From the IMG/VR virus record IMGVR_UViG_3300013121_000022, positions 96,001 to 160,000 of that record: a stretch of 64,000 nucleotides of DNA; one strand, written 5' to 3'. Shown in pieces: positions 24,841 to 45,431 of the stretch. Numbering within the stretch: the stretch's first letter is position 1; each line of letters starts with the position of its first letter. The position numbers were made by a program, and so were the translations under genes. The stretch comes from a virus (taxonomy: Duplodnaviria > Caudoviricetes). A model generated the notes under the pieces. It did not search any database and was not told the DNA's origin. It worked only from the letters and a program-made list of their open reading frames with translations.

Positions 24841-25434
24841 ATGACAATCAAAGCAATCGTCTTTGATCTTGATGGGGTTTTGGTGGATACGCCTGAACTT
24901 CACTATGAAGCTCTCAACCAAGCGTTGGGGCTTTTTGGTTTTAATATCTCTCGACAAGATCACGATTCAAAATTCAATGGCCTGCCAACTCGGACTAAAC
25001 TGGAAATGCTAAACGTTGATCCGGCGATTCGCGGATTGGTAATGGAACTAAAACAACAATATACTCGGCAGGCAATTTCCAAAATTCAACCAAACTATCA
25101 AAAGATTATGATGCTGAGAAGTCTATCGTGGCGCTATCATCTTGGAGTTGCTTCTAACGCACTCCAAGACACCTGTTATTCGATATTGGAAGCAGCTCGA
25201 CTGGATTCGTATTTTACAACTGTGTGGGGCGGAGATGGGGTGAAAAAAACAAAGCCCGATCCAGAGATATATAGGAAGATTATCAAAAAACTTGAAGTAC
25301 AACCAGATCAATGCTTGGTTCTGGAAGACACTCAATACGGTGTTCAGGCCGCACTAGGTGCTGGTGCTCAATGCATTCAAGTAACCTATCCTCAAGTTCA
25401 TAGTGGATTATTCGTGCGAAAGGGCTTATTATGA
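24841..25434 (+). CDS. HAD-family phosphatase
   Basis: FDLDGVL, ASN, KPDPEIY, LEDT..G. Confidence 0.92.
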   Translation: MTIKAIVFDLDGVLVDTPELHYEALNQALGLFGFNISRQDHDSKFNGLPTRTKLEMLNVDPAIRGLVMELKQQYTRQAISKIQPNYQKIMMLRSLSWRYHLGVASNALQDTCYSILEAARLDSYFTTVWGGDGVKKTKPDPEIYRKIIKKLEVQPDQCLVLEDTQYGVQAALGAGAQCIQVTYPQVHSGLFVRKGLL

Positions 25435-26183
25435 ATATAGTGATTCCCATGTCGGGCGCGGGAAAAAGATTTTTGGATGCAGGCTATACCGATCCAAAAC
25501 CATTCATTTTAGTCGATGGTCAACCCATGATTATGCGTGTGACCAACAACGTCTCGGTTAGATCATCCAAAAATCATAACAACATAGTTTGGCTGGTTAG
25601 AACTGAACACCTTGATCGCGCTCAAGATATTCAGCAGGAAATGCGAGATCGCAATATCATTCCCAATGCAACCTACAACATCATAAAAGTTTCCGGCCTC
25701 ACACAAGGCGCGGCGTGTACTGTATTAATGGCCTCTGGTATTATCAATAACGATCAACCTTTAATTATTGCTAACTCCGATCAACTGACCGATTCTTCGG
25801 TTGATGGATTTGTTGAGTATTGTCAAAAGAACAACGCGGATGGCGGTATTATCACGTTTCGATCAAGCGCCGACAAATGGAGTTATGTTCGTTTGGATAA
25901 GCAAGGAATATTGGTTGATGAAGTTGCTGAAAAAGTTGTCATTTCAAATCTTGCCACTCTTGGAATTTACTATTTTCGGCGTGGTTCTGATTTTTGTTCA
26001 GCGGCTGTGAAATCTATCAGGTATAACATGCGGCATCGCAATGAATTCTATGTTGCACCTGTATTCAATGAAATGATTTTGCTTGGCAAGCGAATTTATC
26101 ACTACGAAATTCCAGATTATTGTGCACATGGACTTGGAACTCCCGAAGACCTTGAAAGGTATTTACTGCATGGACGCCAATAA
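25431..26183 (+). CDS. sugar nucleotidyltransferase/GT-A protein
   Basis: IPMSGAGKRF..PKPFI, ANSDQ, EK..S, GLGTPEDL. Confidence 0.9.
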   Translation: MNIVIPMSGAGKRFLDAGYTDPKPFILVDGQPMIMRVTNNVSVRSSKNHNNIVWLVRTEHLDRAQDIQQEMRDRNIIPNATYNIIKVSGLTQGAACTVLMASGIINNDQPLIIANSDQLTDSSVDGFVEYCQKNNADGGIITFRSSADKWSYVRLDKQGILVDEVAEKVVISNLATLGIYYFRRGSDFCSAAVKSIRYNMRHRNEFYVAPVFNEMILLGKRIYHYEIPDYCAHGLGTPEDLERYLLHGRQ

Positions 26184-26898
26184 CTCATATACACAAATGC
26201 AGAAAAAATATTACGAAGAAAACGCGACGATAATGGCAGTGGAGGATCATCGCGGCCACAATAACAATCCAGATTATTACGGAATTCTATTATCAGACAT
26301 CACAACCAATCCAGAATACTGGACTGGTAAAACCGCCCTAGACTTTGGTTGTGGAACTGGACGAAATATTGCCAATCTGTATCGTTTAGCAAAGTGGAAA
26401 TTTGTCGATGGTTGCGACATTGCGCGAAACAACTTGTATGAAGCACATCGTTTATTGACGGAACGTGGTGTTTCCGGTTTTACACTTTACCCCGTCTCAG
26501 GCGTTGATCTTGGTGGTATCCCAAGTAAAAAATATGACTTTGTAATGTCAACCATTGTTCTTCAACACATCGCCGTGTGGTCAATTCGACTGAGTATTTT
26601 AACTGACATCTTTCGAGTGATGAAATCGGGCGGATTATTCTCGTTTCAAGTTGTTAAATATCCGTTGCCGCGAGATCGATATAATATCGCTGACTATCAT
26701 GAAGACAAATGGGATGCGCCAAATACAAATGGAGGGTACGATTTTAGCGTAGATAACGAACAAGATTTGATAAATGACTTGACACGCATTGGGTTTGAAG
26801 TGATTGAAACAATAAGCAGACCTGAATGGGAATATATCAATCAAGAATACGCTCACAATAACAATCGTTGGGTATTTGTTAAGGCGCGTAAACCATGA
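26170..26898 (+). CDS. class I SAM-dependent methyltransferase
   Basis: LDFGCGTGR, YDFVMSTIVLQH, K.GG. Confidence 0.9.
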   Translation: MDANNSYTQMQKKYYEENATIMAVEDHRGHNNNPDYYGILLSDITTNPEYWTGKTALDFGCGTGRNIANLYRLAKWKFVDGCDIARNNLYEAHRLLTERGVSGFTLYPVSGVDLGGIPSKKYDFVMSTIVLQHIAVWSIRLSILTDIFRVMKSGGLFSFQVVKYPLPRDRYNIADYHEDKWDAPNTNGGYDFSVDNEQDLINDLTRIGFEVIETISRPEWEYINQEYAHNNNRWVFVKARKP

Positions 26899-27653
26899 TA
26901 AATGGTACGTATATCTTTCATGTTTTTGAAACACTCACGATTTCAAATTTGTATTCGGCTATCGATAGCATAGTAAGTCAGACGTTCGATAGCAATCAGT
27001 TTGACTTCGTGTTGTACAATTCGTCGCGTTATTGGGAAAATTCCGAGAGATTGCTCGATGGAATTCAGTCTCGGTTGCATGGCATGTTTCGGAGTTTTAG
27101 ATTTATCAATCCAGACGTTCCTACCGACTCGACTCTAGCTGATTTACAGTGGCAAATCAGCAACATTGATGGATCGGACTTCTATTTCACACATAAGGCC
27201 GATTTTGTGTTAGGAGATAAAACTATCCAGAGAGTTGCGAATTTATTTGAGAACGTACATCAGCCTCTTTATGTTAGTTTTTGCAAGTTCGATGTCAGAG
27301 AAGATGTCAACGATCTTGAAACTTATATACTCTCAGGTAGATCGTTTGACAGAATTTTAGATCGTGCGGATGCGTGGGATGTAACTGCTTGCCTTCCAAA
27401 AGATTGGGAAACCCACGACTACAGGTTTCTTGGCTATCGGGGATGGGATGGAACAATGCATTGCTACAACGAACAAGCTAGACGAAATATACAACTTACT
27501 GACTTTTGCAGCTTGGACACTGTGCAATCAAATCGAACAAACGGCATCGACTGGATTTTTGGTGATACTCGATTTTGGGCGCTTCATAAGTTTCATGCCT
27601 TACCTAACGGCAGGGGCGATGCCCGTAAAGATTTAGATGGAAAACGATTCTAA
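26895..27653 (+). CDS. putative glycosyltransferase-like protein
   Basis: AIDSIVSQT, KADF, H.FH motifs; operon context. Confidence 0.5.
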   Translation: MINGTYIFHVFETLTISNLYSAIDSIVSQTFDSNQFDFVLYNSSRYWENSERLLDGIQSRLHGMFRSFRFINPDVPTDSTLADLQWQISNIDGSDFYFTHKADFVLGDKTIQRVANLFENVHQPLYVSFCKFDVREDVNDLETYILSGRSFDRILDRADAWDVTACLPKDWETHDYRFLGYRGWDGTMHCYNEQARRNIQLTDFCSLDTVQSNRTNGIDWIFGDTRFWALHKFHALPNGRGDARKDLDGKRF

Positions 27654-28282
27654 TGAACACCCTCATTGTCATCGCGCATCACAATGGATCGCGGTACATT
27701 CCGGCTTTGCTGGATAGCTTGAAGTGGCATGATCGGAAAGATATTGTCGTTATAGATACTGGCTCAACGTCCAACGAACTCGATCTATTGCCACAAGATA
27801 TACAGGTCGATGAAATTTATGGTGGATATTGTGTTGGCGCATATAAATGGGCATATCGATGGTATCCTGATTACGACTCGTATTTTTTTATGCACGACTC
27901 CATGAGGGCAAAAACAAATTTTCTTCCGGCCTTTCAGTCAAAAGGCGATGTTGTTGCATGGATCGATTTTCCAATGGATTATGGTGAACAAGAACGCGAG
28001 TACATTGAATCGCAGTACGGGAAGGATAATCATTCGCCCAACGCAATCTTTGGGCCAATTTTTTACGCCACTCATCAGGCAATGCAGGGTCTGGCGAACA
28101 ACAATAAATTTCCGCGCAACCCTAAAAATCGAGCGGAACTTTGCGCCTCTGAACGTGCTTTTGCCATAGCTTTTCATCAGTGTGGATTTCGAGTCGATCA
28201 TCTTGAAGAATATGACAACCAGCGTTTGGACATTAGTCGAGATTACGTGTTGTTTGATAAGTTCAGACCAAATCGAGTATAA
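27653..28282 (+). CDS. glycosyltransferase family 2-like protein
   Basis: VIAHHNG..LLDSL..VIDTGS..FMHDS..ERAF. Confidence 0.7.
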   Translation: MNTLIVIAHHNGSRYIPALLDSLKWHDRKDIVVIDTGSTSNELDLLPQDIQVDEIYGGYCVGAYKWAYRWYPDYDSYFFMHDSMRAKTNFLPAFQSKGDVVAWIDFPMDYGEQEREYIESQYGKDNHSPNAIFGPIFYATHQAMQGLANNNKFPRNPKNRAELCASERAFAIAFHQCGFRVDHLEEYDNQRLDISRDYVLFDKFRPNRV

Positions 28283-28537: not shown

Positions 28538-28747
28538 ATGCCATACCGAAATGTTCGTAATGATGCAAGAAATTCCGATCCAAACGTTACTTTGCAAGAA
28601 TTAATGCAAATGTTGAGCACTGTAATAAGTTGTGGAGGATGTGCCAACTTGACATCTGTTGCCTCACAACATACTTGCAAGACATGTGGCCGGACTCTGT
28701 GTGGCGAATGCGGTAATCTCTGTAAAGATCATCGAAAGGTTTCGTGA
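28538..28747 (+). CDS. small zinc-finger protein
   Basis: CxxC..CxxC..CxxC..CxxH. Confidence 0.55.
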   Translation: MPYRNVRNDARNSDPNVTLQELMQMLSTVISCGGCANLTSVASQHTCKTCGRTLCGECGNLCKDHRKVS

Positions 28748-29196
28748 TGTTCATGAATGAAACTGGTATTTCCATAGGATTTGATACGGTAATTCCACCA
28801 AACGATTTTTGCGTTTTTGTTGTACCCATATTTGATATCAAGTAGTCATTCGTTTTCACCGAGCAAACCGCCTGAACTTAGATGCTGTAGAGTTGCTAAC
28901 ACAGACCTGAGTGTTGTAGTTGAATCAATTAATTTCCGCTCACGTAACGAAAATTTTTTTGGAGCTGTTTTTGCTCTGTATGCTCTAACCGCAGGATCGT
29001 TATCCAAAATTATTACATTGGAAAAACCTCAAGTCTGCTTCTCTGTTCTATCACAATCTAATTCAGGTCGTTCAAATCACCGATTGGCGGTTGAGGCATT
29101 ATACTGCGACAAACCCATTGTGTTTGCATATGTAGATCGACATCGAAAGACATTCCTTGACTTAGTTGCTGAACTAGGGTAATATCAACGTGATCG

Positions 29197-29570
29197 GCGC
29201 AGATCAAGTTGTCGAGCTCGAAAGAGTTAGGAACTTCCCGACGATACAGGAGCAATCCTGAAAACCCTCCACATGAAAACAGCAAGTGTGGACAGTTCGA
29301 CTGAACTGATGTCAACGGCAACAGAGAACATTCCGCTCGAAAGAGTAACGGGTGAAAAGGACGGTGATACCCGTCCGGCATGTCAAGGTAACTTGCTTGC
29401 ATAGGCGACAGGACAGGGGATCGCAAGGTGGCGCAAGATAGGCTACGGTTTATCTTGTAGAACCGCAGTATAAACGGTACGACAGAATAACACTCAGTCG
29501 CACTAGGATATACCATCAACCCGATGAGAAAGATGACAACCTAAACAGAATCGGGGGTATGATCGGCGCA
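29197..29570 (+). ncRNA. rnpB: RNase P RNA (phage-encoded)
   Basis: AGGAACTTCCCGAC pairs with AAACAGAATCGGGGGTAT (P4, bulged U); GCAACAGAGAAC..CCGC; GGGTGAAAAGG; GCAAGG; P2 GTTGTC/GACAAC; GAAA-capped P3. Confidence 0.88.
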
Positions 29571-29649
29571 GATTGGTTCTTGACAAAAAAATATAACCGA
29601 TCCATAATAATCTCAACTTCCACTATCTCACAGAAAGAGGATACCGAAC

Positions 29650-29826
29650 ATGGAACTCAAAATTGTTTCTGCAAAAGCTGGTGATCAGTACGTGAATCTG
29701 GTGGGTCAAACATTTCCGGTGGTTCGTGAACTGGAAACAATCTACGTGATTGAAGTTGAGGGCAAAAGCGTCTATGTTCGTGAGGACGACTGCGAAGTAA
29801 AAATCATTGAACCAGTTGCGGCCTAA
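29650..29826 (+). CDS. 58-aa hypothetical protein (not in ORF track)
   Basis: TTGACA promoter at 29580, AAGAGGA RBS; MELKIVSAK...EPVAA. Confidence 0.7.
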   Translation: MELKIVSAKAGDQYVNLVGQTFPVVRELETIYVIEVEGKSVYVREDDCEVKIIEPVAA

Positions 29827-29886
29827 ATAATTATTCTACTTGACAGGCTTTATCAAGTCAGGTAGAATAATTTGCGTGAGGGTCAT

Positions 29887-30120
29887 ATGAAATATACCGA
29901 TAAGTTTGAAGTGGACACTAACGGTAAAATCATTGGTGCTGAAACGCATCCGAATGCGCCCGTAATTGTAAATTTTTATCGTGTTGTCAACGGCAAGAAG
30001 CGATACAATAAACTTGCGAAGCGGTTACATTTTTTTACCGAACAACACTTTCAGAGCAACACCGATTTCTTGAATCGAATGAGCGCACGTAAAGATCGGG
30101 TATATTATCGGGCAAACTAA
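29887..30120 (+). CDS. hypothetical protein
   Basis: promoter TTGACA at 29840; GAGG RBS. Confidence 0.55.
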   Translation: MKYTDKFEVDTNGKIIGAETHPNAPVIVNFYRVVNGKKRYNKLAKRLHFFTEQHFQSNTDFLNRMSARKDRVYYRAN

Positions 30121-30127
30121 ATAACAA

Positions 30128-30198
30128 GCGGGTATAGTATAACGGTATTATAAAAGCCTTCCAAGTTTAAGACGCGGGTTCGACTCCCGCTATCCGCT
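30128..30198 (+). tRNA. tRNA-Gly(UCC)
   Basis: loop CTTCCAA. Confidence 0.9.
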
Positions 30199-30339
30199 CA
30201 GAGAATAGCACGAGTGACTAACGTTGCGAAATGGTTGAATACAGAGTCCTGACGTTGATCTATACTGCTTAGGCACACATGGATCATGAGGTCAAAAAAC
30301 TAATCCTCAACACATCCGGCATTATGCTAATTTTGCCAT

Positions 30340-45304: not shown

Positions 45305-45431
45305 ACTATAAACGCAAGCGATGCCGCCGACAAGTACGATGCAATTTATGCACTGATAACCGAATTGGTAATTCAGCCAAGAACGGGATCAAAAAAGCAG
45401 ATCGGCGCAGATCATCTCGTAAAAACAACAT

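Follow-up and report, generated by a model that had tools for sequence, protein, structure and literature searches.

Ribonuclease P (RNase P) is the RNA enzyme that trims new tRNAs, cleaving the 5' leaders from pre-tRNAs together with one small protein, RnpA. Bacterial RNase P RNAs of type A carry helices P13 and P14 as their hallmark, while type B has P10.1 instead. RNase P is generally seen as a housekeeping ribozyme common to all cells, and a full-text literature search found no paper on a virus-encoded RNase P RNA. The locus described here lies in the window, a 64-kb stretch of DNA corresponding to bases 96001-160000 of the IMG/VR virus record IMGVR_UViG_3300013121_000022 (Caudoviricetes). 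It is a real, full-length and structurally maintained RNase P RNA gene of the Chloroflexota type (type A), carried by a phage.

A sequence-only reading of the window had proposed a phage-encoded RNase P RNA with the conserved regions (CR) of the family, to be abandoned if there were neither a significant covariance-model match nor activity. The RF00010 (RNaseP_bact_a) model does match significantly and from end to end, so that this proposed refutation fails: positions 29196-29574 (+) align to model positions 1-367 of 367 with 58.9 bits (E-value 3e-17 in a search of 28900-29900 at a permissive threshold, 1.3e-18 in a search of the whole genome). CR-I to CR-V are all present, each aligned at high posterior probability, and the helices seen are P1-P5, P7-P14, P15-17 and P18-like hairpins. 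Within the type A specificity domain, a check of the helices confirmed P7, P8, P9, P12, P13 (6 bp) and P14 (9 bp, with a GUAA loop), and P10/P11 is only weakly paired. The + strand folds far better than its shuffled versions (z = -4.26; 0 of 100 shuffles as good), while the fold of the - strand is weak (z = -1.59). Coding potential is absent: the sole sizeable overlapping open reading frame (ORF) is antisense, has no match in Pfam and is absent from the called genes of the protein collection. When the window was scanned with Rfam at the gathering threshold, only tRNAs were reported. The phage RNA falls below the RF00010 gathering score of 100 bits, and a default Rfam scan therefore misses the gene.

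The catalytic core identifies the lineage of this RNA. Read base by base, the 5' strand of P4, ACU-U-CCCGA (29233-29241), pairs with UCGGGGGU (29551-29558) to give eight pairs and a bulged U (A-U, C-G, U.G, bulged U, C-G, C-G, C-G, G-C and A-U). Relative to AAGUCCGGG/CCCGGCUU, the consensus of the family, both bases are substituted in three pairs and a fourth pair has become a wobble. P4 had been described beforehand as a divergent, compensated variant; the pairing is exactly as claimed, but the divergence is not specific to the phage, as this is the standard P4 of Chloroflexota. A search pattern joining CR-IV to the variant CR-V (AGATG, 6-14 bases, AACAGAATCGGGGGTA) matched metagenome contigs and species-representative genomes, at least 120 of each, which places the variant P4 in at least 240 cellular or metagenomic RNase P RNAs, almost all of them from Chloroflexota. 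Among the matches listed, a phylum is named for 105 genome-derived rows and is Chloroflexota in 104 of them, with Chloroflexia, Anaerolineae, Caldilineae, Ardenticatenia and other classes represented; 196 of the 214 with upstream sequence carry AGGAACTTCCCGAC as the P4 5' strand, a 14-mer identical to the phage CR-I, and the remaining 18 carry AGGAACCTCCCGAC. Both parts of the resulting signature, AGGAAC(U/C)UCCCGAC and AACAGAAUCGGGGGUA, are exact in the phage RNA. Likewise, the P4 strands AGGAACUUCCCGAC and AACAGAAUCGGGGGUA are identical between the phage and the cellular RNAs of Chloroflexus, Roseiflexus, Kouleothrix, Anaerolineae, Caldilineae, Ardenticatenia and Herpetosiphonaceae. Both strands of the variant P4 are thus the norm in this phylum and mark ancestry or host rather than a new catalytic core.

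A second signature lies outside P4. Anchor-delimited segments of the phage RNA and of four relatives (L089, L241, L317 and L236) were folded side by side. The signature consists of a 10-11-nt L8 loop of the form GAAA(A)CAG(C/U)AA, a hairpin in J5/7 and three hairpins between J5/15 and CR-IV, and the phage RNA has all of these. The J5/7 hairpin is present in all four relatives; their L8 loop reads GAAACAGCAA or GAAACAGUAA (phage: GAAAACAGCAA), and they have the matching three-hairpin layout, with GACGG, UAAC and AGGA motifs on the middle hairpin. The long L8 loop (GAAA(A)CAGCAA), the J5/7 hairpin, P13, P14 and the three 3' hairpins are thus common to the phage RNA and cellular Chloroflexota RNAs.

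The low covariance score is also shared with these cellular RNAs. Five cellular Chloroflexota genomes gave 54.1, 67, 70.1, 95.8 and 100 bits with RF00010 (one of five over the cut-off), and only one of 18 Chloroflexota loci reaches the gathering score. The 58.9 bits of the phage RNA are therefore normal for the lineage and not evidence of decay, and the threshold is uninformative here because most bona fide Chloroflexota genes fail it. A paper describing a software tool likewise reports only partial RNase P RNA predictions for Roseiflexus and Chloroflexus (PMC2996960). For annotation, this means that the RF00010 gathering threshold misses most Chloroflexota rnpB genes and that Chloroflexota RNase P RNAs alter four pairs of a near-universal P4, although older comparative literature may already describe this variant.

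Set against type A RNase P RNAs in general, such as the E. coli M1 RNA encoded by rnpB, the phage RNA has in common the two-domain architecture, the five conserved regions, the bulged U of P4 and the GCAAGG of J5/15. It differs from these RNAs in the four near-universal P4 pairs described above, in a hairpin (GCAA loop) occupying J5/7 where a single strand is usual, and in L15. As the hairpin replaces single-stranded J5/7, the P6 pseudoknot (J5/7-L17) is not evident; the P15-17 arm ends in a UACG tetraloop. In other type A RNAs a GGU motif in L15 pairs with the 3'-CCA of the tRNA (the RCCA-L15 interaction). The phage L15 loop is GGC/AGA and lacks GGU, as does L15 in cellular Chloroflexota. This is as expected because the CCA of the presumptive substrates is not encoded by their genes (it is present in one of the 46 phage tRNA genes).

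The closest relative of the phage RNA among those compared is a cellular locus (L160, with genes for TruA, L13, S9 and a histidine kinase) with a guanine-plus-cytosine (GC) content of 44.7%. Low-GC Chloroflexota that could host a phage of 43% GC therefore exist, and the host of this phage is probably such a bacterium. The P4, L8 and J5/7 signature would in this way assign an uncultivated 172-kb phage to a host in Chloroflexota, to our knowledge a phylum with very few known phages. Cellular Chloroflexota rnpB genes (L223-L342; for example L290, L160 and L155) often lie within tRNA clusters, after tRNA-Arg(gcg); unlike several of these loci, the phage gene is not beside a tRNA-Arg(gcg) gene.

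The RNase P RNA gene is phage DNA and not a host fragment, because it is located mid-genome in a complete record, has the base composition of the phage and has copies of the phage's dispersed motif on both sides (see below). The source record is a complete genome of 172,504 bp (GC 43.3%) with 141-bp direct terminal repeats; the locus is approximately 47 kb from its nearer end, with phage genes and phage tRNAs on either side. The GC content of the RNA (0.48) is phage-like and is the lowest of the set compared (median of relatives: 0.62). The alternative that a cellular rnpB was misjoined to a viral contig, or that the locus is an attP-type rnpB fragment, draws on the only other 'viral' copy of this type that was found, which is probably host DNA. 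Such an artefact is extremely unlikely for the present gene given its position in the genome, its low GC content and an RNA whose two ends are both made of the phage's motif; furthermore, an att-site fragment is excluded by the full length of the gene and by its identity of no more than 56.5% to cellular copies.

The other copy (L089, in IMGVR_UViG_3300014348_000069) is a Chloroflexota-type RNase P RNA scoring 106.1 bits with RF00010. It was rejected as a second phage copy: it lies where a 22-kb contig ends, shares 82% identity with an Anaerolineae metagenome-assembled genome and shows the cellular rnpB-tRNA-Leu arrangement. As the contig (L349-L350) also carries genes for a Mu-F-like head protein and two DNA methylases, this copy is probably the host flank of a prophage that lies beside, or is integrated at, the rnpB locus of an Anaerolineae-like genome. 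It was recovered from viral contigs by a CR-V 16-mer (14 matches, of which it is the only real RNase P RNA) and by a scan for CR-I plus AACAGA, in which the one further hit was a chance match in coding-like sequence (L348). Scans of the viral contigs with the phage RNA's own sequence and with CR-I plus CR-II gave no matches, and neither did blastn and megablast searches of the phage collection with the RNA or with the surrounding 10 kb.

The phage RNA is both compact and strongly diverged. When segment lengths were compared with those of 150 relatives, every module was present and each was toward the short end of the phylum range; the core from CR-I to CR-V measures 331 nt (median 385), and of the 151 cores only one is shorter; P12 is shorter than any other in the set and P3 is minimal. 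None of 183 unique relatives is more than 56.5% identical to the phage RNA, and their median identity among themselves is 63.5%. Of the 126 columns with at least 95% conservation across the phylum, the phage RNA keeps 103. A quick maximum-likelihood tree places it in the half containing Anaerolineae, Caldilineae and Ardenticatenia (SH-aLRT 98), a placement that is only a hint because of the very long branch and skewed composition. Such a compact version offers a natural experiment on which parts of a type A RNase P RNA can be shortened.

Despite this divergence, the helices are kept by compensatory changes. Using a consensus structure computed without the phage row, 63 of 88 consensus pairs (72%) are canonical in the phage; shifting the 3' partners by 1-3 bases lowers this share to 28-43%. 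Among the 33 pairs changed on both sides relative to the majority, 26 are still canonical, where 34% would be expected from composition (p = 1.5e-7). Pairs with 92-99% invariance across the phylum, two in P2 and the closing one of P3, are among the double compensations, as are three of the four P5 pairs (CUCC/GGAG to CGAU/AUCG); overall, the compensated pairs of P2, P3 and P5 are 80-99% invariant.

Several observations weigh against a maintained gene. Twenty-three of the 126 phylum-invariant columns differ, many of them within compensated pairs, while the worst cellular sequence keeps 110, and the terminal branch is 2.88 substitutions per site (median 0.07); together these could reflect relaxed constraint. 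Twenty-five consensus pairs read as broken in a simple alignment. Many of them are errors of register (direct reading shows P8 and P14 to be well paired), but the weakness of P10/P11 and P15 is genuine, and P3 and P12 are minimal. No terminator-like site was found in 28700-30200, including the interval between the RNA and the next promoter-like site. Finally, no phage relative of the same clade was found by blastn, pattern scans or protein anchors. The long branch, the altered columns, the score under the gathering threshold and the minimal or weak helices would all suit a captured host gene that has become a nonfunctional, drifting passenger. We nevertheless consider such decay improbable for four reasons. 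First, neutral drift to approximately 45% divergence would not leave 26 of 33 doubly changed pairs canonical. Second, all conserved regions, the bulged U, the L8 motif and the GNRA loops are kept. Third, scores down to 54 bits are also seen among the cellular Chloroflexota copies. Fourth, the gene has a promoter-like site and a phage-like base composition, the latter implying long residence.

The ends of the RNA set it apart from its cellular relatives, in that P1 is built from a motif found throughout the phage genome. The 14-mer TGATCGGCGCAGAT occurs in 16 copies in the window at up to two mismatches (0.26 expected), and a 13-mer version occurs in 33 copies in the genome at up to one mismatch. 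Copies of the motif, (T)GATCGGCGCAGATC(A), are located in the window at 1005, 7515, 19010(-), 20949(-), 29192, 29561, 38380, 45400, 46558 and 50361. The motif is 14-16 bp in length and forms a quasi-palindrome, TGATC-G-GCGC-A-GATCA, so two direct copies can pair. As had been noticed from the letters alone, the gene is flanked by two such copies, and these coincide with the two strands of P1 (Table 1); of their 16 facing positions, 14 form pairs and two are G.A mismatches. This coincidence cannot be accidental. Motif copies may have given rise to P1 or taken its place, for instance by recombination at such sites; alternatively, the motif has a function in RNA as well.

Approximately 21 of the 33 copies are inside ORFs, in both sense and antisense orientation, and scans of other viral contigs gave single matches at chance level only; the motif is thus primarily a DNA-level element of this genome. 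Its strand switches in blocks, and GC skew was rejected as the cause of this polarity as the blocks do not follow the skew. In three places the motif starts 5-8 nt past a -10-like hexamer, and some copies are found at predicted transcription starts or just ahead of start codons. The copies at 45400 and 46558 bracket five tRNAs. Operator, nick site and cassette boundary are candidate roles, offered as ideas.

The genomic context fits a role in tRNA maturation. The prior estimate of about 45 tRNAs is close to the counts obtained, 43 in the window and 46, plus a transfer-messenger RNA (tmRNA), in the genome. The tRNA genes are located at 18853-60752 of the window and at 163878-164831 of the genome; the tmRNA gene, identified with ARAGORN, is at genome positions 163325-163638, outside the window. 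Apart from the single gene that encodes CCA, the tRNA genes end without it; position 74 is C in every tRNA gene, mostly with A after it. T, the base preferred by bacterial RNase P at position -1, is present there in approximately 38 of 47 genes (~80%). The phage encodes a CCA-adding enzyme (PolyA_pol head and HD domain; L003:2292-3989). It also encodes a 675-aa protein with a RelA/SpoT domain (L002:12674-14701), a 1425-aa ART-PolyVal protein (L003:9013-13290) and an 855-aa Tpt1/PARP-like protein (L003:13262-15829), and these predicted products together make up an unusually rich RNA and nucleotide toolkit. Processing of phage tRNAs by the phage RNase P RNA is plausible, as it fits the 46 tRNA genes with their near-complete lack of CCA, the T at -1 in ~80% of genes, the CCA-adding enzyme and the preserved core.

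The absence of rnpA from the window, reported earlier, was borne out and extends to the whole genome: neither PF00825 nor TIGR00188 has a match in the complete 172,504-bp sequence, and protein-only RNase P (HARP-type, PIN_5, PF08745) has none either; control genomes were positive in each search. We consider it likely that the RNA is active with host RnpA on the phage's own tRNA precursors. The gene would have been acquired long ago by the phage lineage from a Chloroflexota host, with the catalytic and specificity domains both kept in trimmed form. It would be transcribed from its own sigma-70-like promoter, with a predicted start (~29191-29193) at the first bases of P1. During infection the RNA would assemble with the RnpA of the host, because the phage has none, and the enzyme would cleave the 5' leaders off the 46 phage tRNA precursors and the tmRNA precursor. 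Precursors without an encoded CCA would then be finished by the phage CCA-adding enzyme.

Two other modes of action bear on this proposal. The missing rnpA would also suit an RNase P that works as RNA alone, and the many small ORFs nearby without an assigned function (29650-29826 and 29872-30120 match no Pfam family) could include a phage-encoded cofactor. In the bacterial holoenzyme, as in the Thermotoga maritima structure, RnpA contacts CR-IV/CR-V and the surroundings of P3 and P4. These regions are kept in their Chloroflexota form in the phage RNA, which fits the use of a Chloroflexota RnpA, and no candidate phage protein similar to RnpA was found; activity without the host protein is therefore unlikely. 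Still less probable, and in our opinion very doubtful, is a role as decoy or regulator, in which the RNA would tie up host RnpA or pre-tRNAs and stop host tRNA maturation without catalysing cleavage. The phage's large RNA toolkit (the CCA-adding enzyme and the Tpt1-like and RelA/SpoT domains) and the several altered invariant positions are in keeping with such a role. However, J3/4, P4 with its bulged U, the ACAGAA of CR-V and the GCAAGG of J5/15 are unchanged relative to cellular Chloroflexota enzymes, a decoy has no need of an intact active site and specificity domain, and the phage itself needs 5' maturation of its 46 tRNAs. Cleavage of phage precursors with host RnpA remains the preferred explanation.

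If this is so, a phage that carries tRNAs in a near-complete set, a tmRNA and a CCA-adding enzyme can provide the catalyst of tRNA 5' maturation as well, with the host supplying the small protein. A bolder proposal, which we regard as possible but rather doubtful, is that no full-length, two-domain RNase P ribozyme had been documented in a virus before this one, that it is phage-adapted and takes over tRNA 5' maturation in a Chloroflexota host, and that P1 was rebuilt from the genome-wide motif, tying the ends of the ribozyme to the function of that motif. Were this true, the motif might serve in regulator binding at the transcription start, strand-specific nicking or cassette recombination, and production or acquisition of the ribozyme would be under phage-specific control.

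A second RNA of the family was a chance find in one of five large viral records examined. The 171-kb record IMGVR_UViG_3300045007_000064 (G007), from a phage of similar size that is unrelated to the one studied here, contains a 221-nt RF00010 match of 71.7 bits (L469 1501-1721 (-), corresponding to G007:C1:101792-102012). Like the RNA in the window, this miniature RNA belongs to a large, tRNA-rich phage without rnpA and matches RF00010 from end to end below the gathering score. It has a canonical P4 (AAGUCCGGG/CCCGGCUU), lacks the specificity domain and sits flush between tRNA genes, whereas the RNA in the window has a whole specificity domain, the Chloroflexota P4 and its own promoter-like site.

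Table 1. Features of the phage RNase P RNA locus (positions in the 64-kb window)
Feature	Position	Strand	Evidence
RNase P RNA gene, type A, Chloroflexota-type, ~385 nt including full P1	29191..29575	+	RF00010 match, fold z, helices by coordinates
Predicted sigma-70-like promoter: TTGACT, 17-nt spacer, TAATAT	29157..29185	+	Promoter scan, 9/12 matches; consensus match only
Motif copy 1 (UGAUCGGCGCAGAUCA), P1 5' strand	29191..29206	+	Motif scans, pairing by coordinates
P2 5' strand 29208-29214 (pairs with 29534-29540) and minimal P3 hairpin AGCUC-GAAA-GAGUU 29215-29228	29208..29228	+	
CR-I: J3/4 and P4 5' strand (AGGAACUUCCCGA), bulged U at 29236	29229..29241	+	
P5 5' strand CGAU (pairs with 29420-29423) and J5/7 hairpin CAGGA-GCAA-UCCUG 29247-29260	29242..29260	+	
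Specificity domain: P7, P8 (11-nt loop GAAAACAGCAA), P9, P10/11, CR-II (ACAGAGAACA), minimal P12, CR-III (GGGUGAAAAGG), P13, P14 (GUAA loop)	29265..29418	+	
J5/15 (CAA), P15-P17 hairpin 29427-29464, middle hairpin 29468-29513, short hairpin 29514-29526	29424..29526	+	
CR-IV (AGAAAGAUGA), P2 3' strand, CR-V with P4 3' strand (AACAGAAUCGGGGGUA)	29527..29559	+	
Motif copy 2 (UGAUCGGCGCAGAUUG), P1 3' strand	29560..29575	+	Motif scans, pairing by coordinates
Next promoter-like site: TTGACA, 17-nt spacer, CATAAT, for downstream gene 29650-29826	29580..29608	+	Promoter scan, 11/12 matches

Immediately upstream of the gene, the only ORF in 28750-29190 is 28817-29182 (121 aa), which is not a called gene and for which no homologue was found; the sequence upstream of the RNase P promoter may be non-coding. 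The terminase of the phage has one 12-kb relative at 58% identity, and its other relatives are at most 30% identical. A 209-aa neighbour protein has relatives at 45-62% identity in glycosylation gene clusters; RNase P core motifs were found in none of those contigs with searchable DNA, some of which are short. Further upstream of the RNA, positions 25431-28282 of the window are part of a large phage-borne cluster of sugar-nucleotide enzymes, glycosyltransferases and methyltransferases, and relatives of these genes (L352, L353; 45-62% identity) are present in several uncultivated phage contigs.
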